DNA of 64,000 nt from Paludibacteraceae bacterium (GTDB lineage Bacteria; Bacteroidota; Bacteroidia; Bacteroidales; Paludibacteraceae), in assembly GCA_045612525.1 (NCBI GenBank), contig JAZKZF010000023.1, positions 14,097-78,096 of the forward strand. Reading direction: 5' to 3'. A model generated the notes under the pieces. That model saw nothing but the letters and a program-made list of their open reading frames with translations. It was not told the origin of the DNA and did no database searches. Both the position numbers and the translations under genes were made by a program. Every line of letters begins with the position of its first letter. Within the stretch, counting starts at the first letter, position 1. Below are positions 4,449 to 64,000 of this stretch, one piece after another.

Positions 4449-4519
4449 GCGGCATTAGCACATCGGTAGTGCATCGGCTTCCCAAGCCGAGGAGGCGGGT
4501 TCGATTCCCGTATGCCGCT
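4449..4519 (+). tRNA. tRNA-Gly (anticodon CCC)
   Basis: Cloverleaf folded by hand. The acceptor is GCGGCAT/ATGCCGC, the D stem GCAC/GTGC, the anticodon stem TCGGC/GCCGA with loop TTCCCAA, and the T arm GCGGG-TTCGATT-CCCGT. It is 71 nt with no encoded CCA. Confidence 0.9.
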
Positions 4520-4556: not shown

Positions 4557-4888
4557 TATATAGTGTATCGGTCTATCGCGGGATATGGGAAGAAAAGCGT
4601 ATTGCTTTAATCCCCTATTCCGAGGAAAGTCCGGGCAGCGTAGAGCACCACCGCGGTTAATGGCCGTCAGGCAGTGATGTTTGGTCCCTGCAAAAGAGAC
4701 GAGTAATCCTTAGGGAGGAAGTGATACGAGCATACGGTGGGCTGCAATTCCAAGTATACCGACGTTAGAGCGCTGCTCGCGCGAGTTGGAGGGTAGGAAG
4801 CGATAGAAGCATGTAGCAATACATTGCTCAAGATTAATGGTAGACGCCCTTATAGGGTACAGAACCCGGCTTATAGGTACACTATATA
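4557..4888 (+). ncRNA. rnpB: RNase P RNA, bacterial type A
   Basis: It carries the universal conserved regions GAGGAAAGTCCGGGC (4622-4636) and ACAGAACCCGGCTTA (4859-4873). The 5' TATATAGTGTA pairs with the 3' TACACTATATA (P1), and a T-run follows. The ends are approximate. Confidence 0.9.
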
Positions 4889-4931
4889 TTTTTATTAAGA
4901 TAAGTAATAAAAGAATAATCATAAAAAAGAC

Positions 4932-6883: not shown

Positions 6884-7270
6884 ATGTGCGAGCGCAAATC
6901 AACCATAGCCGGTTTAGCGAAAGGAGTGTATAAGGATAGAGGCAGCAAGTTTCTAGCTTTTGCCGAGCCCATCAATGATGAGGATGAGGCAAAAGCACGT
7001 ATAGCTTGGTATAAAAAGAAGTACCACGATGCTCGCCATGTCTGCTATGCCTATCGACTAGGCGAAAACCTTTGGCGCACGAAAGATGATGGCGAACCCC
7101 ATGGTACGGCGGGTATGCCTATTCTTCGCAGCATTGATGCGCAACAATTGGACAATATCTTGGTAGTGGTAGTGAGGTATTTCGGTGGAACACTACTAGG
7201 TACTGGTGGGTTGATGGTAGCTTATCGAGAGGCGACGAAAGAGGCGTTGAAGGATGCGATGAGGGTATAG
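6884..7270 (+). CDS. IMPACT/YigZ family protein, N-terminal domain only
   Basis: 128 aa with motifs [23 protein letters not shown] and [15 protein letters not shown]. It lacks the C-terminal domain of full-length YigZ. Confidence 0.7.
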
Positions 7271-7364
7271 GTGAAAGGTGAAAGGTGAAAGGTGAAAGGT
7301 GAAAAGTGAAAGGTGAAAGGTGAAAGGTGAAAAGTGAAAGGTGAAAAGTGAAAGGTGAGAGGTT
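7271..7364 (+). repeat. 13 tandem heptamers (9x GTGAAAG, 3x GTGAAAA, 1x GTGAGAG) plus GTT, filling the whole spacer
   Basis: Counted base by base. The array runs from the TAG stop (7268-7270) to the coaD ATG (7365). Confidence 0.95.
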
Positions 7365-15123: not shown

Positions 15124-16037
15124 TGATAAGAACAAGGAATAAGGAACAAGGAGTAAAGACAGCTAGACGAATAATTCTTATTTGTCTTGTTTCTTGGTTC
15201 TTGACTCCTGTATCTATCATGAGTCAAGTGTTATACCGCATATCGGGTAACTCGGCGCTCGCACCATCGTATATATTGGCCACCAATCGGATGGTGGATA
15301 TGCGGTTTATTGATACCATCCCGAATGCATTTAAGTGCTTTGCTGAGTGCGACAAAGTGATTACCGAATTTGCGATGCAAGACTACGAGGCGATAGCCGC
15401 CTTGCGTCAGGCAGCCCTCCTACCCGACTCAGTAAGATTGCGCAATTTTTATAGCGATGAGCAATATCAGGAGATAGACGAGAGTCTTCGCATTAATCTG
15501 GGTATGGGTTTGGACAAATTAGGTAGGATGAAACCTTCGTATTTGGCAGAGATGTATCGCAATGAATTGATGAAACGTTGGCTGAACTATGATGAAGAAT
15601 GTACGATGGAGACATTCTTTGAGAAGGTGGCTTTGCAAACGGATATACCGGTATTGGGATTGGATGATGTGGGCGAGACGATGTATATGCTATTTGACCG
15701 TGAGCCATTTCATTGGCAATGCGATGAACTACTGAAAGTGATAGAATATCCTGAGAAAGAAGTGCGTTTTGAACGCCAATTGGTGGAGATGTACAAATAT
15801 GGTCGTTTGGCTGATATGGCATATTTTGTGAAAGGACCTGACAACCAGACATCGCTATCGTACTCTGATTATCAGGTGTTTGCTAAACGTAATAAAGTAT
15901 GGGTGAAACGACTAACACCCTATTTGAAAGAGGGTAAAGCATTTATCACACTGAATGCCATCTATCTAGGAGGAGATGATGGATTGTTGGCGCAACTGAA
16001 AGCCGCAGGGTATCGAGTGAAGGCGGTGAATAAGTAG
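15120..16037 (+). CDS. TraB/GumN-like family protein (divergent)
   Basis: 305 aa. LYRISGN..APSYILATNRM aligns with the family motif LW.I....S.YLFGT.H, but the G and H positions are replaced. There is a 4-nt overlap with the TPR gene. Confidence 0.5.
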   Translation: MMIRTRNKEQGVKTARRIILICLVSWFLTPVSIMSQVLYRISGNSALAPSYILATNRMVDMRFIDTIPNAFKCFAECDKVITEFAMQDYEAIAALRQAALLPDSVRLRNFYSDEQYQEIDESLRINLGMGLDKLGRMKPSYLAEMYRNELMKRWLNYDEECTMETFFEKVALQTDIPVLGLDDVGETMYMLFDREPFHWQCDELLKVIEYPEKEVRFERQLVEMYKYGRLADMAYFVKGPDNQTSLSYSDYQVFAKRNKVWVKRLTPYLKEGKAFITLNAIYLGGDDGLLAQLKAAGYRVKAVNK

Positions 16038-16124
16038 GTTATAGGTTAGAGGTTAAAGGTTAAAGGTTAGAGGTTAAAGGTTAGAGGCAAGAGGTTAGAG
16101 GTTAGAGGTTAGAGGCGAGAGGTT
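16038..16124 (+). repeat. 12 tandem heptamers (GTTATAG, GTTAGAG, GTTAAAG, GCAAGAG, GCGAGAG) plus GTT, filling the whole spacer
   Basis: Counted base by base from the TAG stop (16035-16037) to the ATG (16125). The terminal GAGGTTATG junction matches the one at 7357-7367. Confidence 0.95.
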
Positions 16125-17189
16125 ATGGGTAAGATAGGTTCGTTCTTCAATCGCAATGCGTTGTCATTGGCCATGCTAGTAGGTGTGGTGGGTTGTTCTG
16201 TGTTTAGACATCTGACGTGGATGTTACCACCACTGATATTCCTAATGCTGTTCTTTACCTTCTGCAAGATTAATCCGCTTGATTTGAGATTGAGGAGATG
16301 GCATTGTGTAGTATTGTTGACGCAATTGCTACTGGGGATAGGACTATATTATGGACTACAAGTAATCGGCAATGAGGTGATAAGGCGATTAGGTGAAGGG
16401 GTGATAGGAGGAAACGATATTGCTATTATCTCACAGGGATTGATGCTGTGTGTGCTGATGCCAACGGCTACTGCGGCACCAATCATAGCTGGTAAACTAG
16501 GGGGAAGTATTCAAAATTTGACCTCATTCACGCTGTTAAGCAATATCGCTACGGCGATTATTGTGCCCGTATTCTTTCCGATAGTCAATCCGAGTGCGGG
16601 TATCGAGTTTGATGTTGCATGCTGGATGATACTCAAGAAGATTAGTCCACTATTGCTGGGACCATTCTTTGCAGCGTGGTTGTTGCGGATTGGCTATAAT
16701 GCATATCATCGCCATAAAGGTACGGGCAAGACATTTACCTTGTCTGCAAAATGGGCACCGATGCCATTCTACGTATGGGTAGTGACGCTGATTATCCTGA
16801 TGGCAGATTTGACCTATACTCTGATTCATCAGGAGTATAGCTACTGGACAATAGGTATCTTATGCGTGGGTTCGATAGGAACGTGTCTGTTGCAGTTTGG
16901 ATTGGGTCGCAGGATTGGTTTGCGTTTTCCTGCCACGACCAAGGGTGAGGATTATCATGATGTGCTTATCAATCCAGCTGCAGCGAATTATAGTATGGAA
17001 CAGGTGAGTCGTATCACAGCGGGGCAAGCCTTTGGACAGAAGAACACTACCCTAGCCATCTGGATGGCTCAAGCGTATCTCGTGCCTGTAGCATCGATGG
17101 CCCCTGCCGCCTATATCATTTGGCAGAATCTATTTAACTCGATTCAACTGAGTAGAGAAGGACGAAAAGCAAACAAAAAAGGAGCGTGA
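16125..17189 (+). CDS. bile acid:sodium symporter (BASS/SBF)-like membrane transporter
   Basis: 354 aa and polytopic. The segments MPTATAAPIIAGKLGG...LLSNIATAIIVP and GQKNTTLAIWMA resemble BASS core motifs. Confidence 0.55.
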   Translation: MGKIGSFFNRNALSLAMLVGVVGCSVFRHLTWMLPPLIFLMLFFTFCKINPLDLRLRRWHCVVLLTQLLLGIGLYYGLQVIGNEVIRRLGEGVIGGNDIAIISQGLMLCVLMPTATAAPIIAGKLGGSIQNLTSFTLLSNIATAIIVPVFFPIVNPSAGIEFDVACWMILKKISPLLLGPFFAAWLLRIGYNAYHRHKGTGKTFTLSAKWAPMPFYVWVVTLIILMADLTYTLIHQEYSYWTIGILCVGSIGTCLLQFGLGRRIGLRFPATTKGEDYHDVLINPAAANYSMEQVSRITAGQAFGQKNTTLAIWMAQAYLVPVASMAPAAYIIWQNLFNSIQLSREGRKANKKGA

Positions 17190-17201
17190 TGCTCCTTTTT
17201 T
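17177..17201 (+). terminator. intrinsic terminator overlapping the stop codon
   Basis: The stem is GGAGC-GTGAT-GCTCC with the TGA stop in the loop. An A-run precedes it and TTTTTTAT follows. Confidence 0.65.
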
Positions 17202-17204
17202 ATT

Positions 17205-17429
17205 GGTGTAAGGTGGAAGGTGAAAGGTGAAAGGTGAAAGGTGAAAGGTGAAAAGTGTATGGTGGATGGTGTATGGTGTAAGGTGTAAAGTGTAAAGGCG
17301 GGGCGGCTGAGCCGCAATTTCTGGGACTTTAATCTATAAACTATTATAACCTCTAACCTTTAACCTATTATAAACTATAACCTCTAGTCTTTAACCAATA
17401 ACCTATTATAACCTTTAACCTATAACCTA
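17205..17429. repeat. composite element: 13 GGTGnAn heptamers / GC core hairpin / inverted GTTAnAG-type array
   Basis: The left arm is 17205-17295. The core AAAGGCGGGGCGGCTGAGCCGCA is 17294-17316. The right arm is 17331-17429 and reads TAGGTTATAGGTTAAAGG.. on the minus strand, starting at the aminotransferase stop codon. Confidence 0.9.
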
Positions 17430-18632
17430 AACTAACTTAGCCAATGCCTCTTTCATGCGGCGCATAGCCTCGATGATAAGGTCTTCGCTGGTGGCATAGG
17501 AGAAGCGAATGCAGTTGTCTTCGCCAAAAGCACTACCTGATACGCATGCCACGTGTGCCTCTTGCAAGAGGTAGGTGACCAACTCATCGGCGTTGTGGAT
17601 GGTTTGTCCGTTGTATTGCTTACCAAAGAAGGCCGTGATATCAGGGAAGAGGTAGAATGCACCTTGTGGCTCAAGCACCTTCATACCAGGGATATCCTTA
17701 GCAAGTCCTACGATCAAGTTGCGACGACGATGGAAGGCTTGACGCATTTCCTCAACGCAGGCTTGTGGACCTGTGTATGCAGCTTCTGCAGCTTTTTGCG
17801 CGATGGTAGTGGCACAGCTGATGACTTGTCCTTGCAAGCGTTTCACTGCAGTAATCAAGTCTTTGTCATGGCTTGCCAACCATCCGATACGATAACCAGT
17901 CATGGCATAAGCTTTGCTGACACCATTGATGATAACGAGGCGGTCTTCGAGCTCAGGGAACTGTGCTAAGGTCTCGTGCTTGCCAGTATAGAGAATGTGT
18001 TGGTAAATCTCGTCAGCGAGCACAACCACTTGTGGGTGACGCTTGAGTACTTCTACTAATGCCTTGAGGTTGTCCAAAGTGTAAACGGAGCCTGTAGGGT
18101 TGTTAGGAGAGCAGAGCATTAGGAGTTTGGTAGCAGGAGTGATGGCAGCCTCGAGTTGCTCGGCAGTGAGGCAGAAATTGTTGTCCATCGTTGTTTTGAC
18201 GAGCACGCTCTTGCCTTGGGCAATCTTCACCATCTCTACATAACTTACCCAGCATGGTGTAGGCATGATGACCTCATCGCCGGGGCCAATCAATGCTTCG
18301 ATAGCATTGCAGATGGCTTGCTTAGCACCTACTGATACAACTATCTCGTTGGCATTGTATGGGCGCACAGGGTAATCCTTGATATCACGATTGAGTGTGT
18401 CGGCTATTGCTTGACGCAAAGCTGGGAAACCAGGTGTAGGACCATAATGTGAGATATCGTTGTTGATGGCATCAATAGCGGCTTGCTTGACATGTGCAGG
18501 AGCAGGGAAATCAGGTTCGCCCAATGAAAGACCAATCACATCTACTCCTTCGGCACGGAGTTGTTGGCACAAAGCAGCCACTTGCAAAGTAGCTGATTCT
18601 TCAAGTGCTGCAATACGTTGTGAAATCTGCAT
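17427..18632 (-). CDS. pyridoxal-phosphate-dependent aminotransferase (aspartate aminotransferase-like, class I)
   Basis: 401 aa with motifs NNPTGSVY and SKAYAMTGYRIGW (PLP lysine). Confidence 0.88.
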   Translation of the reverse strand: MQISQRIAALEESATLQVAALCQQLRAEGVDVIGLSLGEPDFPAPAHVKQAAIDAINNDISHYGPTPGFPALRQAIADTLNRDIKDYPVRPYNANEIVVSVGAKQAICNAIEALIGPGDEVIMPTPCWVSYVEMVKIAQGKSVLVKTTMDNNFCLTAEQLEAAITPATKLLMLCSPNNPTGSVYTLDNLKALVEVLKRHPQVVVLADEIYQHILYTGKHETLAQFPELEDRLVIINGVSKAYAMTGYRIGWLASHDKDLITAVKRLQGQVISCATTIAQKAAEAAYTGPQACVEEMRQAFHRRRNLIVGLAKDIPGMKVLEPQGAFYLFPDITAFFGKQYNGQTIHNADELVTYLLQEAHVACVSGSAFGEDNCIRFSYATSEDLIIEAMRRMKEALAKLV

Positions 18633-19279: not shown

Positions 19280-20407
19280 TTATTCAATCACTTGACCTTG
19301 AGCGTTGAACTTAACGCCGTCCTTCAGGATAACCAATTGACCGTTCTCGAAGAACTTGGTGACGTTTTGGTTAACGGTTACGTTGTCGATAGCAGAAGGA
19401 GTACTTTCGTCTAAGATATAAATTGCAATAGGTTTTTGAGAAGCACTCGCGTAGCAAGAAAATAATGAACTATTTTGATTATATTGCATTACATTGCGAG
19501 TGTTCGTTCCTTGTGCGACAACAGAAGCCACACCATCTGTGATAGTAATTTCCCATGAAGAATTGTCAGACAACTCTTCTTGAGTTTTTAATTGATTGTT
19601 TGAAGAACTAGCTGCATAGAGATAACCTTCACCTGTATAGAATGCGAATGTGCCATCAATATTTCCTTCTTCAAGAGTCAACACTTGTACTTCGTCGTTG
19701 ATAATAATGGTATTGCCTTTTTTAGTAATAGCAACTTGTCCACGGTTATTATTGTTTTGTGTAGTACTCAATGCCATGTCAGACTCACTTGCAGCGATCA
19801 CCACTTGGTTGCCAATTTGTAAGTCAGCTACATCTGTAACTAAAACGAATACATCACCAGATATGGTAGGTTTATCTTCTTCATCTTCACCTTCGCCTGG
19901 TTGGTCATCACCTGGTTGGTCATCACCTGGTTGGTCTTCGCTTTCTCCATAAGATACAGCAACCGATTTTACATACAAAGCACACTTTGCTGATGACTGA
20001 GTCAACTTAACAACTATTTCACCGGTAGCATTGCCTTCGAATGTATATTCTGTAGCTACATTGGTCAGAGCAACTTCTGCTCCAAATGGATTACCACCAA
20101 CTGTCACATTTAATTTAGCTTTAGTATTTGATGCGCCCGAAGCATTAACTACAATCTTTTTTACAGGTTCAGTGATTTCGTCGGTAGATACTTGTAAGTA
20201 AGAAACCTCTTTTTTACCTGTACCATAGTGAATACCTTTTGTATTATCAAAATTGGATTCTGCGGCATCAGATGTAATAGTCCAAGCATTACCTTTGTCA
20301 TCAGTGCCAGCACCATCACATTGAGCAGTGAAGGTCAAAGTAGCAGTTTCTGCAAAACTCATCAAACTAATGAGCAGTGCGCTTAAAAATAAAGTAAACT
20401 TCTTCAT
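19280..20407 (-). CDS. secreted surface protein 1 (signal peptide, two beta-rich modules, acidic DQPG linker, conserved C-terminal tail)
   Basis: 375 aa. The leader MKKFTLFLSALLISLMSFA and the tail AIDNVTVNQNVTKFFENGQLVILKDGVKFNAQGQVIE are shared with the next gene. There is no lipobox Cys. Confidence 0.8.
   Translation of the reverse strand: MKKFTLFLSALLISLMSFAETATLTFTAQCDGAGTDDKGNAWTITSDAAESNFDNTKGIHYGTGKKEVSYLQVSTDEITEPVKKIVVNASGASNTKAKLNVTVGGNPFGAEVALTNVATEYTFEGNATGEIVVKLTQSSAKCALYVKSVAVSYGESEDQPGDDQPGDDQPGEGEDEEDKPTISGDVFVLVTDVADLQIGNQVVIAASESDMALSTTQNNNNRGQVAITKKGNTIIINDEVQVLTLEEGNIDGTFAFYTGEGYLYAASSSNNQLKTQEELSDNSSWEITITDGVASVVAQGTNTRNVMQYNQNSSLFSCYASASQKPIAIYILDESTPSAIDNVTVNQNVTKFFENGQLVILKDGVKFNAQGQVIE
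19896..19936. repeat. 15-bp tandem repeat CCTGGTTGGTCATCA (2 full copies plus a partial third) encoding (D)DQPG
   Basis: Read directly. It is an in-frame acidic linker repeat, DQPGDDQPGDDQPG. Confidence 0.85.
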
Positions 20408-20577: not shown

Positions 20578-21669
20578 TTATTCGATCACTTGACCTTGAG
20601 CGTTGTAACGAACGCCGTTTTTGATGATAACCAATTGACCGTTCTCGAAGAACTTGGTGATGTTTTGGTTAACGGTTACGTTGTCAACTGCGGTGGTAGA
20701 AGTAGAAAGAATAGTAACTTGACCATCAGCCATCTCTGGAGTGGTATTGTATTTAGTAAGTTTACCAAACAATTGTACCTTGTCTCCTTTTTTAACAGCC
20801 TCAGATACAAAGCAATAATATGCTTCAAAAACTTTACCACCATCTTCTGTATCTGCAATCCAAAAACTTTGCTTTCCAGATTTCCATTCATAAGTGTCAG
20901 TCACATATCCTACAACTACGTAGGTTAGTTCGGTAGGCACATTGTTTCCGCTCACTGTAAGAGCAATCTCTGCTGCTTCAGCACAAGTTACTTTAGTCGC
21001 TTTAGTGAAAGTTTCGACGGTTACTTCACTGGCATTTTCTCCTTTGTAAGCAATGGCTTTAACAGTAGTGGTTTCAGTTATTTCAAATGACTCAGCATAT
21101 ACAAGACTTGCATTAGTTGGTTCTGTACCATCTGTAGTGTAATAAATAGTCGAACCATCAGCAGCAGTAATAGAAACAGTAGTAGATTCAATAAAATCTG
21201 CATCACCTGCAACTGCTGGTGCAACGACATAGTCATCAGCAACCTCACCGTATGTAACTTTTATTGTTTGGATACGACGATGACCATTAGTTCCATCTAC
21301 AGTGAATTTAACAGACTCAGCAATGCCATTCCAGGTTCCAGAAGCATACGCACCATTATCAGTTGTTATCTGGTTTGAATTATCACCAGTACCAAATGTT
21401 AATTCAATTTTTGTCAACTTACCAGAAGTAGTTGCGATCGTAAAATATCCACCCGCATACACACGTACTGCACTACCAGTATTATAATATTTAGGTGTAT
21501 TTTGATTTGTACCTTTATCCAATGTAACAGAAACAGATTCATCTAAAGTAATAGATAGCACTTCCTCTGCATTTTCATAGCCTTGTGCAGAAAGGTCAAT
21601 ATAAACTTCCTTTGCAAAACTCATTGCGCTAATAAGCAGTGCGCTTAAAAATAAAGTAAACTTTTTCAT
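20578..21669 (-). CDS. secreted surface protein 2 (signal peptide, beta-rich module, FN3-associated TIYYTTDGTEPT module, OB-fold-like module, conserved C-terminal tail)
   Basis: 363 aa. The leader and tail are nearly identical to gene 1, while the passenger region is unrelated to gene 1. Confidence 0.8.
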   Translation of the reverse strand: MKKFTLFLSALLISAMSFAKEVYIDLSAQGYENAEEVLSITLDESVSVTLDKGTNQNTPKYYNTGSAVRVYAGGYFTIATTSGKLTKIELTFGTGDNSNQITTDNGAYASGTWNGIAESVKFTVDGTNGHRRIQTIKVTYGEVADDYVVAPAVAGDADFIESTTVSITAADGSTIYYTTDGTEPTNASLVYAESFEITETTTVKAIAYKGENASEVTVETFTKATKVTCAEAAEIALTVSGNNVPTELTYVVVGYVTDTYEWKSGKQSFWIADTEDGGKVFEAYYCFVSEAVKKGDKVQLFGKLTKYNTTPEMADGQVTILSTSTTAVDNVTVNQNITKFFENGQLVIIKNGVRYNAQGQVIE

Positions 21670-21840: not shown

Positions 21841-24800
21841 TTATTTCACAACAGCACCTTGAGCGTTGTATTGAACGCCGTTCTTGATGATGATCAATTG
21901 ACCGTTAACGATAGCCTTAACAGGAGCAACGGTAGAGTCAATGTTATCAAGAGCAGTTGGAACTTCAGGTTCAACAGTTGGGAAAGTGATAACAAGTGTC
22001 TTAGTTGCATATGTCCAAGTGAAGGTGTAATCACCTGCTTCGTCAACAGAAAGAAGCATATTACCAGAGTTGCCTTCCAAACCAGCTACGTCATTAGCAT
22101 CACGAGTAACATGAGCACCGTTAGCAGTAAATTGTCCATCGACATTGATTCCGAAATCATAGTCGCCTACTGTAGAGATAGTGATAACTACAGAAGCAGT
22201 GGCATTATCATCTGCAAGCACAAGAGGTGTGGTGTTAGCCCATCCATCCCAAGCACCTTTGACAGCAATAGCAGGAAGAACAACTACTTCTTCTAACAAC
22301 TCAGCGGTAGCAGTCACCTCTGCAGTCTCAAGATCGAGTGTAAAGGTCACGTTGTAGCGTCCAGATACAGGAATATTGAGAGTAACATTACCCTTCTCTG
22401 GATAAGTAAACCAAGCCCAACTATGATTCACAGCCACTTTGTATTCGATATTACCAGCAGCAAGGGTCACATTCTCTTTTACAAGGAGATAAGTAGTACC
22501 ATCTGCTTGCTCTACCATGTCGTTAGCAGTATTGCTAGGATCCCATTCTGAGCCAAACAAAGATGTAGATGAACCGGTTACAGTGAAAGGAAGATTACTC
22601 AATTCGTCTGCAGTGTACCATCCGTCTATCATATAGAAGTTGTCAGGAGTCCAAACAAGATCATCTGTTTGATTGTCCTCGCCACCTTGACCATTATTGA
22701 AGATGACATTAGTGATTTCACTTACCGCTGGATAAGCAATGCCATATATATCATAGCCAAAGAAAGTGGTTATTGCTTCTAATTGTATACCTGGCCATCC
22801 ATTGTTGCCATCCTCATTCCAAACGTATACCCAAACCTCGTCCCATTCTTTGGTATTGATGAAGTAAACACTCTCGTAAATATAATCGAAGTTAGCTACA
22901 AGAGCGCAGTCTGCGAGCACTTCGAAAGTATATTCAGCGTCAGTAGAAACCTCTTCACCGCCTACAGTCCAATTAACGAATACGTAACCCTCATTAGCAG
23001 TTGCAGTAAAAGTAGCCTCTGCGCCGTGCTCGAACGAACCTCCACCAGTTACAGTACCAGCCTCAGCAAGGTTAGCAGAAACGGTAACAGTGTATGAAGG
23101 CAAGGTCAATGAAACAATGTAGTTGCTATGGTTGAATTCGTATATTGAATTGTACTTCTTCATTGTACCACAAACTACAACTTGAGAACCAACGACAAGA
23201 TCATCAATAGATGTAAACTGTTCTTGGTTTAATCCTAAACCACCATAGCACTCAAATTTATTACCCTCTTCATCTTGGATCCAATATGTAATATTTCCAT
23301 AGTTATCATTGAAACTCTCTACCTCAGAGATTTCACCTTTTACATATACTTGCTTGGTTAAGTCGCTGGTAACGTTATCAATCAAAGCAATTGCTTCTGC
23401 TACAGTATATGCAGTTTCTGGGGTATTGGAAATATCTACTTTAGGCACAGAGTATGCTTTGTACTCAACCAAATAGCAGCCTGCTCCCAATTCGTATGTT
23501 TCACCATATTTAACTAACTTACCACATGCAACCAATGTGTCACCTGCAACGATGTAATCCTCTGTAAATTGAGTATCACCAGCAGCTTCATAGAATTTGT
23601 AGAATTGGAATCCTCCCTCTAATGTGATAGTATATGTGTTGCTATTACTATAGAATTGTGCGGTTTTTACAACACCTTTTACATATACATCTTGGTCATC
23701 ATAGCAGCCACCGTTATATACCTCAATTGCCTCAGCTTCGGTGTAAGGATTAGCTTGGCTATTGTTCAAAGGAAGTTTGATAGTATATGTAGCAGAAGCG
23801 ACAGAGCTTGTAATCTCACCACTAATTGCAATGGCTTTGATGGTTATTTCACCACATTCATCAAGAACGATAGCTTCTGTATATTCTTCACTATCAGCAG
23901 TAGGAGTAGTACCATCTAATGTATAGTAGATTGTTCCTTCTTCAGCAGAAAGAGTAACCTCTTGAGCTTCGGTATATGTACCTTCTGCAAGTGAGAATGT
24001 AGGAGCATCAAGAGTTGGAACCTCTGGAGTTCCACCAGCTGCAGCGTAAGTAACAGTGATTTTTGTAATACGACATGTTCCTCCAAAGGTAATTGTAACA
24101 GCATTTGCAGAACCTGTCCAATTCTTCGAATCGGTCATTGTACCAACATCTGCAGTATGGGTACCTGCCCAGTTATTGCCATCCGCAGTGAATGCAATTG
24201 CAGTAATCACATAGCCAGCTGGAACAGAGATCTGCATATAATGATCTACGTAAACACGAGTTTGGGAATCATTTACATATAAATTGTTACCGCTTCTGGT
24301 GTGAAGAATACTTATATCATCTTGCTTTCCATATAAGGTTTCTGTTGTATTTGCGTTGGTACCTGTGAAACTTGTACCCCAAAAAGCATTATTTGGGACA
24401 ATCTCGTATGTTCCTGCTGTAATTACATTTTCAGTCACATTAATGGTATAACTATCTGTTACAGTTACCTCATCCTCTGTATATGTAACAGTCACTTCTT
24501 TTTCTCCAGCCGTTGACATGTCAGGAGTAGAAACTGAAGTAGGAGTAACCACTTTAGTTTCATCTTCTTGAGCCACGTCATTCTTGGTTACGCTATAGGT
24601 AGCAGTACAAGTTCCGTCAAATTTGAAAATATCACCTGTTTCATAGTCAGTGGTCGCACCTTCAACAGCAATTGACTTAAGGGTCTTAACGATAACATCA
24701 GGTGTTTCACCAGCTTCATAATAGGTAATTACTGCTTTATTGAAGTAAATTGCACCATTAGCAGAAGAAGGACGAGAAATTTCAATAAGGATATCTCCTG

Positions 24801-25218
24801 TATAGTCGTTAGTGTTTTCAACTGCGAATTCTGTACCTCCAGCAGCAGCAGTCTGACTAGTAAATTTACTTGATTCTCCTAATTTATTGCCACCAATATA
24901 TACTTTAATTGTAACGTTGGTATTGGCTTTAGAAGTTCCCCATACTTGAATTTTTTCAATTTTTTTAGAAGAGTAAGAAGATGTTGATAACTTTAAATAT
25001 GACACTGCTTTACTATTGGTGCCCACTTGAATATATGCCTTGTTACTTGTATAGCTACCATCAGATGTGAGTGACCAACTGCCACCTCCACCATCTGTAA
25101 GTGTACCGTTTGAAGTAACACCGCTAGAAATAGACAATGTCGCTGTCTCTCCCCACGCGTTTGTTACGCCGAGGGCGAGCATCGCAAATAACGCGAAAAA
25201 TAGTTTTAAATGTTTCAT
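21841..25218 (-). CDS. large secreted multidomain surface protein 3 (Ig-like, FN3-associated, two OB-fold-like, InlB-B-repeat-like, CBM25/26-like and two X25/CBM-like modules, related C-terminal tail)
   Basis: 1125 aa from MKHLKLFFALFAMLALGVTNAWG, with the start trimmed from 25281. Module calls rest on recognisable sequence patterns, for example VYFINTKEWDEVWVYVWNEDGNNGWPGIQL...VIFNNGQGGEDNQTDDL (starch-binding-module-like) and GTIYYTLDGTTPT. The tail is VNGQLIIIKNGVQYNAQGAVVK. Confidence 0.8.
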   Translation of the reverse strand: MKHLKLFFALFAMLALGVTNAWGETATLSISSGVTSNGTLTDGGGGSWSLTSDGSYTSNKAYIQVGTNSKAVSYLKLSTSSYSSKKIEKIQVWGTSKANTNVTIKVYIGGNKLGESSKFTSQTAAAGGTEFAVENTNDYTGDILIEISRPSSANGAIYFNKAVITYYEAGETPDVIVKTLKSIAVEGATTDYETGDIFKFDGTCTATYSVTKNDVAQEDETKVVTPTSVSTPDMSTAGEKEVTVTYTEDEVTVTDSYTINVTENVITAGTYEIVPNNAFWGTSFTGTNANTTETLYGKQDDISILHTRSGNNLYVNDSQTRVYVDHYMQISVPAGYVITAIAFTADGNNWAGTHTADVGTMTDSKNWTGSANAVTITFGGTCRITKITVTYAAAGGTPEVPTLDAPTFSLAEGTYTEAQEVTLSAEEGTIYYTLDGTTPTADSEEYTEAIVLDECGEITIKAIAISGEITSSVASATYTIKLPLNNSQANPYTEAEAIEVYNGGCYDDQDVYVKGVVKTAQFYSNSNTYTITLEGGFQFYKFYEAAGDTQFTEDYIVAGDTLVACGKLVKYGETYELGAGCYLVEYKAYSVPKVDISNTPETAYTVAEAIALIDNVTSDLTKQVYVKGEISEVESFNDNYGNITYWIQDEEGNKFECYGGLGLNQEQFTSIDDLVVGSQVVVCGTMKKYNSIYEFNHSNYIVSLTLPSYTVTVSANLAEAGTVTGGGSFEHGAEATFTATANEGYVFVNWTVGGEEVSTDAEYTFEVLADCALVANFDYIYESVYFINTKEWDEVWVYVWNEDGNNGWPGIQLEAITTFFGYDIYGIAYPAVSEITNVIFNNGQGGEDNQTDDLVWTPDNFYMIDGWYTADELSNLPFTVTGSSTSLFGSEWDPSNTANDMVEQADGTTYLLVKENVTLAAGNIEYKVAVNHSWAWFTYPEKGNVTLNIPVSGRYNVTFTLDLETAEVTATAELLEEVVVLPAIAVKGAWDGWANTTPLVLADDNATASVVITISTVGDYDFGINVDGQFTANGAHVTRDANDVAGLEGNSGNMLLSVDEAGDYTFTWTYATKTLVITFPTVEPEVPTALDNIDSTVAPVKAIVNGQLIIIKNGVQYNAQGAVVK

Positions 25219-25501
25219 GATTTTTTGTTTTTTGTTAATAATAAAGTTAATTAATATAAATTGTTGTTCAATTCGTTTCACGTATTTGGCTCTTTATGTT
25301 CGCGAAAGTGGCTAAAGCGAAAGTGGCTTCGCTGGCGCTTTACGAATAAAAAAAGGAAATAATAGATTACCTTACCTATCATTTCCCTATCCTATTTCGC
25401 CCAACAATCCTTACACCCTGTAGTGTAAAAATAATCGGCGATATTTGCAAATATTTGCTTCATCAAAAGAGTGTCTTAACCATTTTTCTGAAATTGCGCT
25501 A

Positions 25502-25509
25502 CAAAGGTA
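25502..25509 (-). promoter_or_regulatory. candidate -7 promoter box TACCTTTG for surface-protein gene 3 (implies a leader of about 280 nt)
   Basis: The plus strand reads CAAAGGTA. A second copy of the box sits in the hairpin loop at 25606-25613. Confidence 0.4.
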
Positions 25510-25600
25510 CAAATAAATTTACACTCCACCAAATTTATGATGTACAATTTGCAAATTTTAATCAAAAAGTACAAAATCATAGTTGTAATATAAGCAAATA

Positions 25601-25620
25601 CCCCCTACAAAGGTAGGGGG
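25601..25620 (-). terminator. GC hairpin CCCCCTAC/GTAGGGGG downstream of the SDR gene (possible terminator)
   Basis: It is an 8-bp perfect stem. The downstream run on the minus strand is only moderately T-rich. Confidence 0.4.
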
Positions 25621-25625
25621 AAAGT

Positions 25626-25707
25626 ATTGGATGGTAATTGAGTGGTAACGGAATGGTAACGAAATGGTAACGTGAAAGAATGTAGAAAGGATGTAGAAAG
25701 AATGTAT
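25626..25707. repeat. short-unit arrays (ATGGTAAC-type x4, then GAATGTAGAAAG-type x2-3) abutting the SDR stop codon
   Basis: Read directly: ..GGATGGTAATTGAGTGGTAACGGAATGGTAACGAAATGGTAACG.. then AATGTAGAAAGGATGTAGAAAGAATGTA. Confidence 0.7.
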
Positions 25708-25709
25708 CC

Positions 25710-26537
25710 TTACTTCTGGAATCTTCCAACCAACTTAATCGCCAAGAATACCAACCAATCAGGCGTATGCTTGAGTAATGGTGTGCAGAGGTGGTTGATC
25801 ACGCCAGGCATATCGGCTTTCTTGCCACGGAACATCTTCTTGAGGGCACGTTTGACGAGTTTCTCAGGTGGGATAGCCACGGTCAAGTTCACCGCTAAGC
25901 GGCGCAAGTGAGGTGCTAAGCCAAAGAGTTCGGTATCTACAGCGCCAGGAGTCATCACAGTGATATGCACACCCTTAGGTTTGAATTCATACCAAAGCGA
26001 CTTGGAGAAATTGTAGATAAATGCCTTGGTGGCATTGTAGGTTTGGATGCCAGGCATAGCCATCCATGCAGACATAGACGACATATTGAGGATATAGCCC
26101 TTTTGGCGTGGTTTGCCACAGAGTTTTTGCGCTTGTTCTTCTGCTGTGAGTTGGCGGTTGATCATCTCCTCGCCAAAGAGGCGGGTGAGTTTGGCCACCG
26201 TGATCATATGCAAGTTGAGCATGAGCTCGATGCGCTTCATGCTGGTCTCGCAATAAGGGTTGAAGAAGAAGACGCCAGCGTTGTTGATGAGGATATCCAC
26301 GACAAGGTGGTTGTCCTTGCAGTATTGGAGCAACTGCTCCGCTGCATCTTGCTTGGAGAGGTCGGCATAGAGAGGAATGGTCTTTACGCCATATTGAGTA
26401 GCGAGGTCAGCAGCCACTTGTTGGAGTTCTGCTTCTTGGTTGCTAACCAACAGCAGATCGGTATGATAATCACGCGCGAGTTGGGTGGCATATTGGAGGC
26501 CAATACCCGATGAGGCGCCTGTTACTAAAGCTAACAT
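25710..26537 (-). CDS. short-chain dehydrogenase/reductase (candidate hydroxysteroid dehydrogenase)
   Basis: 275 aa with the Rossmann motif TGASSGIG and the catalytic motif YNATK. It is the last gene of the reductase operon. Confidence 0.85.
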   Translation of the reverse strand: MLALVTGASSGIGLQYATQLARDYHTDLLLVSNQEAELQQVAADLATQYGVKTIPLYADLSKQDAAEQLLQYCKDNHLVVDILINNAGVFFFNPYCETSMKRIELMLNLHMITVAKLTRLFGEEMINRQLTAEEQAQKLCGKPRQKGYILNMSSMSAWMAMPGIQTYNATKAFIYNFSKSLWYEFKPKGVHITVMTPGAVDTELFGLAPHLRRLAVNLTVAIPPEKLVKRALKKMFRGKKADMPGVINHLCTPLLKHTPDWLVFLAIKLVGRFQK

Positions 26538-26546
26538 ATATTTTTT

Positions 26547-26657
26547 AGTTGAAAGTTTAAAGTGTAAAGTTTAAAGGCAGGGCGGCTATGCCGCAGTACC
26601 TAGCCTATAACCTATAGCGTAGCGTCCTATAGCCTCAAAGAGGCGTCCTATAACCTA
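26547..26657. repeat. composite element: GTTTAAAG-type array / GC core hairpin / inverted CCTATAACC-type array
   Basis: The core AAAGGCAGGGCGGCTATGCCGCA (26573-26595) matches the core at 17294-17316 at 20 of 23 positions. The right end CCTATAACCTA contains the stop codon of the upstream gene. Confidence 0.85.
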
Positions 26658-27896
26658 CTTTTCAGGATACCACATTTGTTCGTACTTGAGGGCTTCCTTC
26701 TTGAGGTAAGCAGGGATGTCCTTGTCGCACTCGTGGCACTTCATATCGAGGGTGTACATACGCGCTACGCAGTAATTAGAGCGTTTGCACTCGGAGTGGT
26801 ATTGCTCCTCGCGCATCTTATTGACGAAGTCGGTGTCGCGTACGAGTGCGTGGCCTATTTGCACGAAGTCGAATCCTGCAGCGAGGGCAGTCTCGGCATT
26901 CTCACGTCCCATGACGCCACCGACATAGATGAGAGGCATCTTGAGCGCTGCGCGGAATTGCTTAGCTGTATCGAGGAAGAAAAGTTCTTTGAAAGGCACC
27001 GTAGGAATCATCAAGTGACCAACGAAGCGCAATGCAAGGCGTAGCCACCAGAAAGACCATGGGTTCATGTAGTGCGCCAGCCTCTTGATAGGCATAGCAC
27101 CACCCATGACGGTGAAAGGTGCCTTGCTGACAAAGCCTGCGGTGAGGACGAGAGCGTGTACGCCATGCTTCTCAATCTCTTGTGCGATGCGGATGCACTC
27201 CTCTACTTTGAGACCAGACTTGAAGCCGTCGTACATATTGGTCTTGACAACGACTGCCATATCGTCGCCTGCGTGCTCCATGACCTCAGCCATGACCTCG
27301 TTCATGAAACGCATGCGGTTCTCGAGCGAACCTCCGTACTCATCGCGACGGCGGTTGGTATATGGCGAGAGGAATTGTGAGATGAGATATCCGTGACCAG
27401 CGTGAATCTCCACGCAGTCGAAGCCACACTCACGGCAGAAATCCACGGCATGACCAAATGCCTTGACGATGTCTTTGATTTCCTCTTTCTTAAGCGCACG
27501 ATGGAGCGTTGGGGAATAGAGGTTGAAGCCGGTGCTGGCGCCTACTGGTAGGCAGTTGCAGGTATAGAAGTGGGTCATGTTGCCACAGTGACCGAGCTGG
27601 ATGCTGGCTTTAGCGCCTTCGGCATGGATACCGTCGGTGAGGCGCTTGAGGTCCTCTTTGATTTCGTCGTGGATATAGAGTTGACCATCGAAAGACACAC
27701 CTGAGCGAGTGACCGAGCAGTATGCTACGGTGGTCATGGCTGCCCCACCCCGTGCAACGGCGGTATGATAGTTGTAGAGATCTTGACTAGGTTTGTTGCC
27801 GTATGCCATATTCTCGAAAGCGGCACTACGTATAGCGCGGTTGCGCAGAGTGATTGGACCGAGTTTGTGCTCGGTGAAAAGGAGGTTATTGTTCAT
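26655..27896 (-). CDS. NADH:flavin oxidoreductase, Old Yellow Enzyme family (candidate 3-oxo-steroid ene-reductase)
   Basis: 413 aa with the OYE TIM-barrel signature HAGHGYLISQFLSPYTNRRRDEYGGSLENR and a C-terminal Cys cluster CKRSNYC...CHEC. Confidence 0.85.
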   Translation of the reverse strand: MNNNLLFTEHKLGPITLRNRAIRSAAFENMAYGNKPSQDLYNYHTAVARGGAAMTTVAYCSVTRSGVSFDGQLYIHDEIKEDLKRLTDGIHAEGAKASIQLGHCGNMTHFYTCNCLPVGASTGFNLYSPTLHRALKKEEIKDIVKAFGHAVDFCRECGFDCVEIHAGHGYLISQFLSPYTNRRRDEYGGSLENRMRFMNEVMAEVMEHAGDDMAVVVKTNMYDGFKSGLKVEECIRIAQEIEKHGVHALVLTAGFVSKAPFTVMGGAMPIKRLAHYMNPWSFWWLRLALRFVGHLMIPTVPFKELFFLDTAKQFRAALKMPLIYVGGVMGRENAETALAAGFDFVQIGHALVRDTDFVNKMREEQYHSECKRSNYCVARMYTLDMKCHECDKDIPAYLKKEALKYEQMWYPEK

Positions 27897-27997
27897 TGTT
27901 CAAAATTGTTCAATGTGGTTCAATGTTGTTCAATGTGGTTCAATGTTGAACGCGAAGCGCTGAACCATACTGAACAGCCTATAGGGCTATTGAACTA
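27897..27997. repeat. five 10-mers GTTCAATGTK / GC hairpin GCGAAGCGC / inverted TGAAC-containing arm
   Basis: Read directly. It fills the entire spacer between the 5-alpha-reductase-like stop and the OYE start. Confidence 0.9.
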
Positions 27998-28786
27998 TTA
28001 GTATATAAACGGAATGATACGTTTTAGTTTCTTTTCGTCGAATTCTTTTGCGAATTCAGTCTTGTAGCGGTGATAGATGGAATTCGCGCGAGGAACGAGG
28101 TTGCAGCAAGAGAACCAGAAGAAGCTCAATCCAGCCCATGACCATGTCAAGATAGCGAAGCCAAGCCACTCGGTGATTTCTCCAAGATAGTTGGCGCTGG
28201 TGACATACTTGTACATACCCTTTTTAGGCAAATAGTGGTTGGTATCCCCAGGTTTGCGTAAGTGGCGAATCACATGGTCGGAATGCATATTGATAACCCA
28301 TCCGCTAATGAAGACAAGCACACCCAAGATGAAGCGCCAATCGGTGAGCCAAGAAGTAGCATAAGGTGCGAACTGAGGGGCTAAATGGAAGAGCCAATAG
28401 CCTTGTATGTATCCATTTACGAGGTTCCAAATCACTGAGAATGCCATGATGATGATAGGCATCTTGCTATTGCCTTTGAGCAGGAATGGGAAGATAAATG
28501 ATCGTTGGAAATAGTGGAATTGGAATATGAGGAAGAAAATCAGATAAGGAAGCTGGAATTTAACTTCAGACATAGCCCAGAGGTAGAACATCACGACAAA
28601 GACAGGCATCTCCATGAGGCACCATCCCACTTTGTTGTTGATAGCAGGTCCCCATTTCTCAGTACGCATTTTGCCATAACCAGCATCTACGAAGTAGAGG
28701 GCAACAAACACAACCAATCCTACAAGAAAGAGGACAAAGAGAAAATTATGAAACGATTCCAAAGCAGTAGATATTTCCATAAGCAT
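27998..28786 (-). CDS. 3-oxo-5-alpha-steroid 4-dehydrogenase (steroid 5-alpha-reductase, SRD5A-like) family membrane protein
   Basis: 262 aa and polytopic. The C-terminal segment HSDHVIRHLRKPGDTNHYLPKKGMYKYVTSANYLGEITEWLGFA is typical of the family. Confidence 0.8.
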   Translation of the reverse strand: MLMEISTALESFHNFLFVLFLVGLVVFVALYFVDAGYGKMRTEKWGPAINNKVGWCLMEMPVFVVMFYLWAMSEVKFQLPYLIFFLIFQFHYFQRSFIFPFLLKGNSKMPIIIMAFSVIWNLVNGYIQGYWLFHLAPQFAPYATSWLTDWRFILGVLVFISGWVINMHSDHVIRHLRKPGDTNHYLPKKGMYKYVTSANYLGEITEWLGFAILTWSWAGLSFFWFSCCNLVPRANSIYHRYKTEFAKEFDEKKLKRIIPFIY

Positions 28787-28793
28787 TATTTTT

Positions 28794-28845
28794 TAGGCGA
28801 CTAGGCTATGAGGCGATAAGGCGATAGACTAGAAGCGAATTAGGG
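28794..28845. repeat. AGGCGA-type short-unit array in the leader of the reductase operon
   Basis: The sequence is TAGGCGACTAGGCTATGAGGCGATAAGGCGATAGACTAGAAGCGAATTAGGG. Confidence 0.6.
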
Positions 28846-28847
28846 CA

Positions 28848-28855
28848 CAAAGTTA
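28848..28855 (-). promoter_or_regulatory. -7 promoter box TAACTTTG for the reductase operon
   Basis: The plus strand reads CAAAGTTA, about 62 nt upstream of the start at 28786. I found no comparable box in the two downstream intercistronic spacers. Confidence 0.55.
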
Positions 28856-45109: not shown

Positions 45110-45114
45110 ACTTT

Positions 45115-45185
45115 GTGTTTAGTGAACGCTGCGCTACTGTTTAGTGTTTAGTGAACGCTGCGCTACTGTTTAGTGTTTAGCGTTT
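45115..45185. repeat. 29-nt unit GTGTTTAGTGAACGCTGCGCTACTGTTTA x2 plus a partial third
   Basis: Read directly. It belongs to the same family as 42695-42750, contains the def stop codon (45177-45179) and ends 5 nt from the mntP start. Confidence 0.9.
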
Positions 45186-45725: not shown

Positions 45726-45785
45726 TTTAATTTACAGTTAGACTCTTTACTATCTCTGGCGAAAAGGTAGCGCAAAGGGTAAGGA

Positions 45786-45851
45786 ATAGTGCGTGTATTG
45801 TGCGTGTATTGTGCGTGTATTGTGCGTGAATAGTGCGTGAATAGTGCGTGA
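45786..45851. repeat. six tandem 11-mers (ATAGTGCGTGT, ATTGTGCGTGT x2, ATTGTGCGTGA, ATAGTGCGTGA x2)
   Basis: Counted directly. It lies between the ruvX stop and the def start. Confidence 0.9.
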
Positions 45852-45859
45852 TTGATAGG

Positions 45860-63499: not shown

Positions 63500-64000
63500 A
63501 TGAATATCAAGAAGTACCTAATAGTAATCGTAGTAGTATTGACTATTTGCAACTTAGTAGCTGCACCATTCACTATCAACGGAAGACATATCGTGTACAA
63601 CCAGACGGATAGTATGTACATGTGTGTGCTTCCTGATTCGCTATTCTATGGAAAAGACTACCCAGCAATCATTCACCCAGATACCCTCTTTGAGGAGAAA
63701 ATAGATACGATTACCGCCGATACCACCTTATACGAATACCTCGTTAATGTGTGCGACACCACATTGCTTCAAGACACCGTGGTGTACTGCGATAGCGTAG
63801 TGCTGACCGACACCACCATCGTAGTAGATAGTATCATCTATCGTGTAGACACGGCATGGGTGTGCGACACGGTATTGATGCAAGACACTTTGGTCAACTG
63901 CGATAGTATAGTGCGGGCAGATAGCCTATTCGTAGTGGATACGATAGTACGTATGGATACGGCATGGGTATGCGATACTATTTTTGCACAAGATACGATG
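63500..64000 (+). CDS. secreted repeat protein, N-terminal part (3' end beyond window)
   Basis: An ATG at 63500 opens a frame with no stop to the window end. This frame is not in the ORF track because it lacks a stop. It has a hydrophobic signal (MNIKKYLIVIVVVLTICNLVAA) and then D[TS]xxxx hexapeptide periodicity organised in 36-37-aa repeats with conserved Cys. Confidence 0.55.
   Translation, partial: MNIKKYLIVIVVVLTICNLVAAPFTINGRHIVYNQTDSMYMCVLPDSLFYGKDYPAIIHPDTLFEEKIDTITADTTLYEYLVNVCDTTLLQDTVVYCDSVVLTDTTIVVDSIIYRVDTAWVCDTVLMQDTLVNCDSIVRADSLFVVDTIVRMDTAWVCDTIFAQDTM

Follow-up and report, generated by a model that had tools for sequence, protein, structure and literature searches.

A hairpin set between opposite heptanucleotide arrays forms a conserved intercistronic spacer in Paludibacteraceae

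REP and BIME sequences are short, GC-rich imperfect palindromes of 20–40 nt that are extragenic but lie inside transcription units, often at 3′ ends or in the gaps that separate cistrons. REPs shield the mRNA upstream of them from 3′ exonucleases and determine the ratio between cistrons, as at malE-malF. The BOX elements of Streptococcus pneumoniae are modular intergenic repeats with a variable number of tandem internal units set between conserved modules; they lie near genes, are predicted to fold and may affect expression. Heptanucleotide repeats, such as the STRR of cyanobacteria and the TAACTGA repeat of Beggiatoaceae and some Bacteroidetes, form direct arrays of period 7 in gene gaps, often upstream of starts, with a fixed orientation and a variable length. 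Their role is possibly post-transcriptional, and carriers of the TAACTGA repeat include Paludibacter propionicigenes (PMC4679880). Transcribed MITEs (Correia in Neisseria, ERIC/IRU in enterobacteria) are small co-transcribed intergenic repeats whose hairpins alter mRNA processing and stability. To our knowledge, little has been established about how genes within one operon are balanced in Bacteroidota.

The window analysed here, a stretch of 64,000 nucleotides from a Paludibacteraceae bacterium, has a G+C content of 45% and promoters of the Bacteroidota type, and its nearest named relatives are Paludibacteraceae MAGs from animal guts. Its minus strand carries a Steroid_dh gene (27998–28786, Pfam PF02544), a gene for an Old Yellow Enzyme family flavin oxidoreductase (OYE, 26655–27896, PF00724) and a gene for a short-chain dehydrogenase (SDR, 25710–26537, PF00106). 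The order Steroid_dh-OYE-SDR is kept in relatives, and we take the gene content to match that of the clusters of 5-alpha-reductase, flavin oxidoreductase and 3-beta-HSDH genes with which gut Bacteroidota produce allo-bile acids. The gap between the two minus-strand genes OYE and SDR is 117 nt long (26538–26654), and is bounded by the OYE stop codon TAG at 26655–26657 and the SDR start codon ATG at 26535–26537 (CAT on the plus strand). A first-pass annotation had described this gap as an intercistronic spacer inside a steroid-reductase operon, lacking a TAnnTTTG promoter box. The Pfam assignments and the gene order in relatives agree with this description, as does the position of the sole minus-strand box near the cluster, the Bacteroidota-type –7 box TAACTTTG upstream of Steroid_dh (28848–28855). 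A scan of both strands from 26046 to 27787 detected no TAnnTTTG box, which rules out both an internal SDR promoter and an antisense promoter of that type. A coding function for the spacer was ruled out by stop codons in all frames on both strands. The natural inference from the sequence is that the spacer is transcribed as part of the Steroid_dh-OYE-SDR mRNA.

Read in the sense of the transcript (minus strand), the OYE stop is followed by a C-poor AGG-heptad array, a two-tier hairpin, a G-free heptad array and an A-rich leader that leads into the SDR ATG. The first array, termed [A], is degenerate and contains few C residues (26610–26654; GTTAT AGGACGC CTCTTTG AGGCTAT AGGACGC TACGCTAT AGGT). 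The stop codon overlaps the first heptad as its first three bases (TAG GTTATAGG), and predicted folds place a small stem, hairpin 1 (GCCUC-UUU-GAGGC, 26632–26644), within the array. The two-tier core hairpin of 38 nt (26572–26609) was delimited from the family alignment and from folds, and scores 66.4 bits with the covariance model described below. It consists of an outer 7-bp helix P1 (UAUAGGC/GCCUUUA, 26603–26609 with 26572–26578), a 5′ internal loop UAGGUACU (26595–26602), an inner helix P2 (GCGGC-AUA-GCCGC, 26582–26594) and a 3′ internal loop CCU (26579–26581). The G-free array, termed [B], runs on from the 3′ strand of P1 as AAACTTT ACACTTT AAACTTT CAACT (26547–26571); Tandem Repeats Finder reported a period of 7, 4.3 copies and 86% matches for heptamers at 26547–26576. 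The leader, AAAAAATAT (AAAAAAUAU as RNA, 26538–26546), lies directly 5′ of the SDR ATG.

The first-pass annotation had proposed that this spacer holds a second copy of a composite element also present at 17.3 kb, and all of its statements on the sequence were confirmed. Its core, AAAGGCAGGGCGGCTATGCCGCA at 26573–26595 (+), matches 17294–17316 (+) at 20 of 23 positions, the sole match in the window at three or fewer mismatches, and the similarity exceeds random expectation, since none of 100 dinucleotide-preserving shuffles gave a match. The hairpin is intact in both copies, with GCGGC/GCCGC kept and the loop TAT in one and TGA in the other. The G/T/A heptamer array reported on one flank (GTTGAAA GTTTAAA GTGTAAA GTTTAAAGG) is present with period 7 according to Tandem Repeats Finder, and the CCTATAACC-like units reported on the other are at 26604, 26626 and 26647; such units total 35 in the window, against 10.5 expected. 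Both copies end as claimed in CCTATAACCTA (26647–26657 and 17419–17429), the last three bases of which are the reverse complement of the upstream gene's TAG stop; the junction of stop and heptad, TAGGTTATAGG, recurs at 17419–17429 and at 16035–16045. The element also fills the spacer (26538–26654), with only 9 A/T bases between the array and the SDR start. Two refinements concern the strand and the size of the hairpin. The genes are on the minus strand, so that the antisense had been described, and the hairpin is larger than given there, with an outer 7-bp helix around the GCGGC/GCCGC stem. What had been called the core is the 3′ half of the two-tier hairpin in antisense reading.

Further copies were collected by pattern and covariance searches. 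A search for the core pattern in one genome per species gave 46 stretches, nine of them in seven Paludibacteraceae MAGs; the remaining 37 were in unrelated, mostly high-GC taxa and were left out of the family count. A scan of metagenomes, using a pattern with fixed stems and a free triloop and 3′ internal loop, gave 24 stretches, 16 with the same architecture and a G+C content of 41–51% and eight without arrays, which we regard as chance matches. A covariance model built from 23 distinct cores re-found all pattern-derived family copies and added the diverged copies L054:711–761, L064:978–1027, L063:6164–6219, L035:5824–5881 and L048:1206–1253. The core family thus totals about 18 distinct genomic sites, all in Paludibacteraceae or Paludibacteraceae-like sequence: nine in the seven MAGs labelled Paludibacteraceae, and the rest on unlabelled metagenome contigs with similar G+C content and the same arrays. 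Since the same core and the same kinds of array recur at these sites, the view that the two copies in the window represent one composite element is upheld. No core match was found in viral contigs, and a phage origin was ruled out accordingly. At gathering score the only Rfam matches in the window were RNase P RNA and a tRNA, and a permissive scan of 26400–26800 returned one chance match (E = 3.2); a known RNA family was ruled out on the basis of these two scans. We found no description in the literature of a hairpin-centred Bacteroidales element of this kind.

Family members share one plan. The element starts at a stop codon, or at the 3′ end of a tRNA-Arg followed by T6. The [A] units are C-free (AGGTTAG, AGGCGAG, AGGTTAA, GGTGTAA) and form clean arrays of 3–18 units. 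After the hairpin come G-free [B] units (ACACTTT, ACACCTT, ACACCCT, AAACTTT), an A/T-rich stretch and an ATG. At most sites a gene on the same strand ends 20–111 nt before the core and another starts 31–54 nt after it, and about 14 of the 18 sites lie between or after co-directional genes; the orientation bias is about 14 to 4. The core is flipped relative to the genes at L047, L067 and L063:6164 and symmetric at L035:5824; because the layout of the element nearly matches its reverse complement, transcripts of flipped copies still read a G-rich array, a hairpin and a G-poor array. The hairpin follows a tRNA-Arg in L048 and L062, and an aminotransferase gene at the convergent junction at 17.3 kb. 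Arrays of the [B] type also occur without the hairpin, after a promoter (L013) and after a terminator (L045). Array length is unstable, with 6 [A] units in L059 and 18 in L008 between flanks that are 99% identical, although assembly collapse could contribute to this difference. The element is a modular intergenic repeat, found here only in Paludibacteraceae-type sequence, that joins simple-sequence arrays of heptanucleotides to a dispersed extragenic hairpin, each of a known kind, as one oriented modular cassette.

In 21 of the 23 distinct cores the minimum-energy fold is P1 plus P2, at –13 to –20 kcal/mol. Intrinsic terminators are also GC-rich hairpins, and the clear examples in the window have a similar energy (–14 to –21 kcal/mol), with stems of 8–12 bp followed by U4–U7. 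The pairing of an A-run with a U-run in P1 likewise resembles that of bidirectional terminators. The core hairpin is nevertheless a poor fit to an intrinsic terminator, because its stem is broken by an 8 × 3 internal loop and its tail (UUUACACUUU or UUUAAACUUU) has no U-run; in most copies, moreover, a gene starts 31–54 nt downstream. One variant, L048:1206–1253, in which P2 is GCGAC/GUCGC with a compensatory change of G-C to A-U, has T6 after the hairpin and looks like a true terminator.

The main family alignment gave no measure of covariation, as P2 and the 3′ strand of P1 had been fixed by the collection patterns; informative stem variants came only from the covariance-model search. The triloop varies freely between sites. 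In L063, hairpin 1 is GCCC-UUU-GGGC, with one base gone from each arm and pairing kept. Across the family, P2 is preceded by the consensus RNGRAUAU and followed by CCN-GCCUUUA, with UAAAGGC at the base of P1, and the C right after P2 is invariant in 25 distinct sequences, though it was free in the metagenome pattern. Folding of the whole 26.5 kb spacer gave z = 0.19 relative to shuffled sequences, within a family range of –2.1 to +1.0. A long [A]-[B] stem joining the stop and start codons was rejected as a general feature, as this spacer and 11 others fold like their shuffles, and the outer helix of the orthologue consensus has no supporting covariation.

These properties allow a comparison with the systems described above. 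Like REPs, the element is a short GC-rich imperfect palindrome, extragenic but within transcription units, lying between cistrons or at 3′ ends, and its 38 nt fall inside the REP size range; protection of upstream mRNA is also the mechanism that we favour for it. Unlike REPs, it has no GTAG head (GT[AG]G is absent from the family alignment), it has 7-nt tandem arrays on its flanks, a feature absent from REPs, and it shares no sequence similarity with them. REPs and BIMEs occur in hundreds of copies, commonly in inverted pairs or clusters, whereas all family copies are single hairpins and their number is seemingly low, at two in 64 kb and one or two strict core matches per representative genome or MAG, as judged from this window and representative MAGs. 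BOX elements share the modular intergenic layout with variable tandem units, but their unit is about 45–60 nt as against 7 nt, they have three named modules without G/C strand asymmetry, and they belong to another phylum and show no sequence similarity. STRR and TAACTGA arrays consist of a single unit type and lack a conserved hairpin, whereas the family described here is defined by a hairpin of 38–45 nt between two arrays of opposite composition, C-free (AGGTTAG/AGGCGAG) and G-free (ACACTTT). Correia and ERIC/IRU elements have clear terminal inverted repeats, target-site duplications and long duplexes. In the Paludibacteraceae element complementary arms, GTGTAAAGGC...GCCTTTACAC, are present only in the minority of symmetric copies (L035:5824–5881, L047, L054, L067), whole-spacer stability is ordinary, and a target-site duplication cannot be defined, since the element ends are tandem arrays. 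On this comparison the element appears to work most like REP/BIME or BOX while being a member of neither, and it falls outside intrinsic terminators and MITEs as these were tested.

The rate of change of the spacer was compared with that of the flanking genes in six species-level lineages that have the same spacer (the window, L007, L023, L053, L058 and L063). L068, which is nearly identical to L023, also has it and makes a seventh orthologue. Mean pairwise identity was 0.957 over the 117 nt of the spacer, as against 0.655 at codon position 3 of OYE and 0.596 at codon position 3 of SDR, and was 0.91–0.975 at codon positions 1 and 2 of both genes. The difference between spacer and third positions was significant for every pair (Fisher p 4e-8 to 2.5e-22). 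The rate of the spacer is therefore as low as that of non-synonymous sites, and six to thirty times lower than that of the synonymous sites next to it. Within the first 60 nt of SDR, third-position identity has already fallen to 0.59 (41% synonymous divergence), with divergence setting in again at the second codon, so that the start codon of SDR marks the end of the conserved block. Recent recombination is an unlikely cause of the conservation, as all tracts would have to stop exactly at the ATG. With 95.7% identity in the spacer against 60–66% at the flanking third positions, the whole spacer is under purifying selection in this clade. That an entire intercistronic spacer is conserved like non-synonymous sites is the strongest single result of the analysis.

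Across all seven orthologues 64 nt are invariant and form two central blocks, one of 30 nt and one of 34 nt, that include loops and unpaired segments; the rare changes fall in the first heptad, hairpin 1, the 5′ internal loop, two [B] units and beside the ATG. The invariance of loops and unpaired stretches suggests that the sequence itself is recognised and that the hairpin is more than a structural barrier. The hairpin and its conserved flanks might accordingly bind a dedicated protein (a ribonuclease, or a protein that binds RNA or DNA), or the conserved central 70 nt of the spacer might be cut out of the operon mRNA as a stable small RNA with targets of its own. The invariant C after P2 and the conservation of stem sequence, rather than covariation, across paralogues would fit such a role, and as GCGGC-N3-GCCGC is the same on both strands, a reader of double-stranded DNA, or one indifferent to orientation, would tolerate the flipped copies. 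The arrays, however, which account for most of the element, vary freely from site to site, the spacer has neither a promoter nor a terminator for an independent small RNA, and we know of no candidate protein or target. Together with the lack of an Rfam match, this leads us to regard recognition or a small RNA as distinctly improbable.

The presence of the element in orthologous operons, which the first-pass annotation had proposed to compare, varied: the spacer is kept in the six lineages, lost or replaced in two nested ones and absent from more distant orthologues. OYE protein identity is extremely high and carries little information, as with L077 (99% amino-acid identity at about 82% nucleotide identity), so relatedness was read from nucleotide trees. 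In these the element-bearing loci form one clade, with two element-free loci, L077 and L071, nested inside it. L077, the sister of L063, has 20 nt of G-free CTAAACA units between the two genes. The C-terminus of its OYE is altered as well, and the locus resembles a deletion that took the final OYE codons with it. In L071, sister to L053 in the OYE tree, the gap of 120 nt has a different design: GGTTTAG units lead into three small GC hairpins, with TGAAGATC between them. Loci beyond the clade have gaps of 6 nt (L078–L081), 26 nt of G-free heptads (L082) or 436 nt made of about 3.7 copies of a 113-nt unit (L072); in L073 and L074 there is no gap and OYE and SDR overlap as ATGA. None of the orthologous gaps, with their 6, 20 or 26 nt, other repeats or overlaps, corresponds to the 26.5 kb site with a discrete insert taken out. 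L084 combines a distant OYE (74% amino-acid identity) with a spacer of the 26.5 kb type. Its identity to L007 jumps from 57–79% to 91–94% about 250 nt before the OYE stop, which indicates that the 3′ end of OYE and the spacer were acquired by recombination. Loss in L077 and replacement in L071 show that the element is dispensable. It is thus ancestral to one clade and strongly conserved while present, yet replaceable.

Turnover of this kind, with unrelated repeats in the same OYE-SDR gap in L071 and L072 and no element in L077, would also be expected of selfish or neutral DNA, that is, a non-autonomous MITE- or REP-like hairpin that settles in gene gaps, acquires heptads by replication slippage, plays no role in the cell and is kept where harmless. 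The spread of the core over some 18 unrelated gaps in both orientations, the hypervariable array length (L059 versus L008) and the many short tandem repeats in the gene gaps of the window are in keeping with this, and heptamers are reported to be the commonest long simple-sequence repeats in bacteria (PMC4679880). At the OYE-SDR locus, however, this reading is contradicted by the rate test on six lineages and by a drop in conservation placed exactly at the SDR start codon, contrary to what recent recombination tracts would leave. The orientation bias, the lack of definable terminal inverted repeats or target duplications in the common form, the one or two strict copies per representative genome and the absence from viral contigs also argue against it, and we consider it unlikely that the element is selfish or neutral.

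Given its near-unchanged retention in related species, the element probably acts in the operon mRNA. The reading that we favour, at a probability of about 45%, is that the spacer is a cis-acting mRNA spacer in which the hairpin generates or shields a 3′ end of the upstream cistrons, while the G-free array gives SDR an open leader devoid of start codons. The [A] array and the hairpin would be the 3′-end module of the upstream cistron or cistrons and [B] the 5′ leader module of SDR, because the hairpin goes with the upstream unit elsewhere (a tRNA, the 3′ end of the aminotransferase gene, the variant with a T-run) and [B] also stands alone after a promoter or terminator. The hairpin, of –18 kcal/mol, would block 3′-to-5′ exonucleases after cleavage in the single-stranded downstream array, and might also act as a weak terminator. 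Shine-Dalgarno-independent initiation is usual in Bacteroidota. As it has no G, the [B] array offers no ATG, GTG or TTG, no Shine-Dalgarno-like run and no internal G-C pairs, and may keep the start region open for initiation of this type. The predicted unpaired probability of the SDR start region is 0.65, compared with 0.40 with shuffled spacers, and the start region is more open than in shuffles in all 12 spacers folded (0.58–0.72 versus 0.40–0.54), marginally so in some. As a net result, SDR would be uncoupled from OYE and the expression ratio of the two would be set. Against this cis-acting reading stand the ordinary stability of the whole spacer, the poor fit to a terminator, the flipped or symmetric copies at three to four sites, the two lineages without the element and the invariance of the sequence, which hints at a specific reader.

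The sister copy at 17.3 kb (17205–17429, minus strand; covariance model 58.1 bits) has the same modules in a different setting. It starts at the stop codon (17427–17429) of the minus-strand aminotransferase gene (17427–18632) and continues as an [A] array (17326–17426), the core (17286–17336, with P2 at 17303–17315) and a long G-free [B] array (17205–17298, Tandem Repeats Finder). At its end lies a canonical bidirectional terminator, A6-GGAGC-GTGAT-GCTCC-T6 (17175–17201), common to the convergent gene 16125–17189. The [A] and [B] arrays of this copy pair with each other (fold z = –5.3), and its G-free run extends for about 115 nt inside the 3′ untranslated region. Rho binds G-free, YC-rich RNA and usually needs roughly 70–80 nt. 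A G-free, C-containing array could therefore be a rut site, and the element a Rho-dependent attenuator that cuts back transcription of SDR, or transcription beyond the aminotransferase gene, when the RNA carries no ribosomes. The [B] arrays lack G and abound in YC dinucleotides, the long run at 17.3 kb makes such a role plausible there, and the antisense strand of [A] is C-rich and G-poor, so that the element would be rut-like in both directions. At 26.5 kb, however, the G-free stretch is too short, at only about 45 nt with few C residues, and it stops 9 nt before the start codon, where ribosomes would soon cover the RNA. Two arrays of the window that reach start codons (7271–7364 and 16038–16124) are G-rich and not C-rich, and the conserved hairpin would be left unexplained. 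Rho-dependent attenuation is for these reasons very unlikely as the general function.

A broader and frankly speculative possibility is a Paludibacteraceae 'punctuation' system, in which C-free AGG arrays, a sequence-specific clamp hairpin and G-free arrays together make a cassette that a dedicated ribonuclease or RNA-binding protein recognises. Such a cassette would define the cut or protection sites of operon, tRNA and RNase P RNA precursors and the translation of the next cistron, with array length as a fast-evolving tuning knob, and would parallel, in bacteria, the intercistronic processing that proteins define in organelles. If, on the favoured reading, the hairpin and the G-free leader set cistron ratios, the element would provide a portable natural insulator for engineering gut Bacteroidales and a handle on mRNA processing in the phylum. 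Given the gene content of the operon, its internal regulation may matter for the conversion of bile acids or steroids in the gut. Should the element prove inert, it still documents strand-asymmetric heptad arrays in gene gaps, which is of use to those who annotate or assemble MAGs.

Short tandem repeats fill gene gaps all over the window. Tandem Repeats Finder reported arrays of period 7 at 26547–26576, 17205–17298, 17345–17429, 16036–16125 (AGGTTAG, 12.9 copies) and 7269–7363 (AGGTGAA, 13.6 copies), and repeats with units of 10 and 11 nt lie at 27895–27948, 25631–25706 and 45789–45854.

The element, a spacer of heptad arrays and a hairpin, lies in a minus-strand cluster (25710-28855) that encodes a Steroid_dh-domain protein, a flavin oxidoreductase of the Old Yellow Enzyme (OYE) family and a short-chain dehydrogenase (SDR). 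Clusters of 5-alpha-reductase, BaiCD-like flavin oxidoreductase and 3-beta-HSDH genes are reported to make allo-bile acids in gut Bacteroidota (PMC10382948). The window cluster matches these clusters in gene content. A hairpin on the same strand (CCCCCTACCTTTGTAGGGGG, 25596-25620), situated approximately 95 nt past the SDR stop codon and preceded by G-poor arrays, looks like the operon terminator, but its loop region holds a perfect promoter -7 box (TACCTTTG).

The OYE gene of the window (26655-27896) was compared with its orthologues in two related contigs. The protein is 99% identical to that encoded by L077:1000-2247, but the DNA is only about 82% identical; for L071:379-1620 the corresponding values are 96% and only about 79%. 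Synonymous sites are near-saturated, while the protein is almost frozen. In a further relative, L084 (1501-2781), there is a recombination breakpoint within the OYE gene. Identity to contig L007 increases from 57–79% to 91–94% approximately 250 nt before the OYE stop codon, and a spacer of the same type as the window element follows.

The OYE-SDR gaps of two relatives contain other repeats, unrelated to this type of spacer. In L072 (5246-5681) a hairpin-containing unit of 113 nt is present in about 3.7 tandem copies, and in L071 (1621-1740) there are three small GC hairpins with TGAAGATC between them.

Within the window, four gaps are built on a plan similar to that of the element (27897-27997, 25282-25709, 45726-45859 and 45110-45176). 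They combine small GC hairpins with tandem repeats whose units are 10, 11 or 29 nt long and contain little G on the coding strand, for instance TTGAACAACA (five copies), CATTCTTTCTA (three), CACGCACAATA (six) and a 29-nt unit (2.3 copies).

Heptad arrays were also observed elsewhere in the window. The 40-nt gap between a tRNA gene (4449-4519) and the RNase P RNA (4560-4889) contains an AGG-heptad array, GAGGCGA GAGGCGA GAGGTTA GAGGCGG GAATATATAG, which resembles the element's AGG-heptad module together with its 5′ internal loop but lacks the hairpin. Co-transcription of the two RNAs is possible. Two long, clean arrays, AGGTGAA repeated 13.6 times (7269-7363) and AGGTTAG repeated 12.9 times (16036-16125), are each located between co-directional plus-strand genes and occupy the entire gap, which stretches between the stop codon and 'GAGAGGTT ATG'. 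The 3′ end typical of 16S rRNA is complementary to AGGTGA, so that these arrays present a Shine-Dalgarno-like site every 7 nt.

Three tandem paralogues (19280-20407, 20578-21669 and the start of 21841-25281), whose products contain Fn3_assoc and CHB_HEX_C domains, have N-termini, upstream regions and terminators in common at a spacing of 1262–1298 nt. Right at its end (63731-63996), the window carries at least three copies, 62–74% identical, of a unit of approximately 110 nt.
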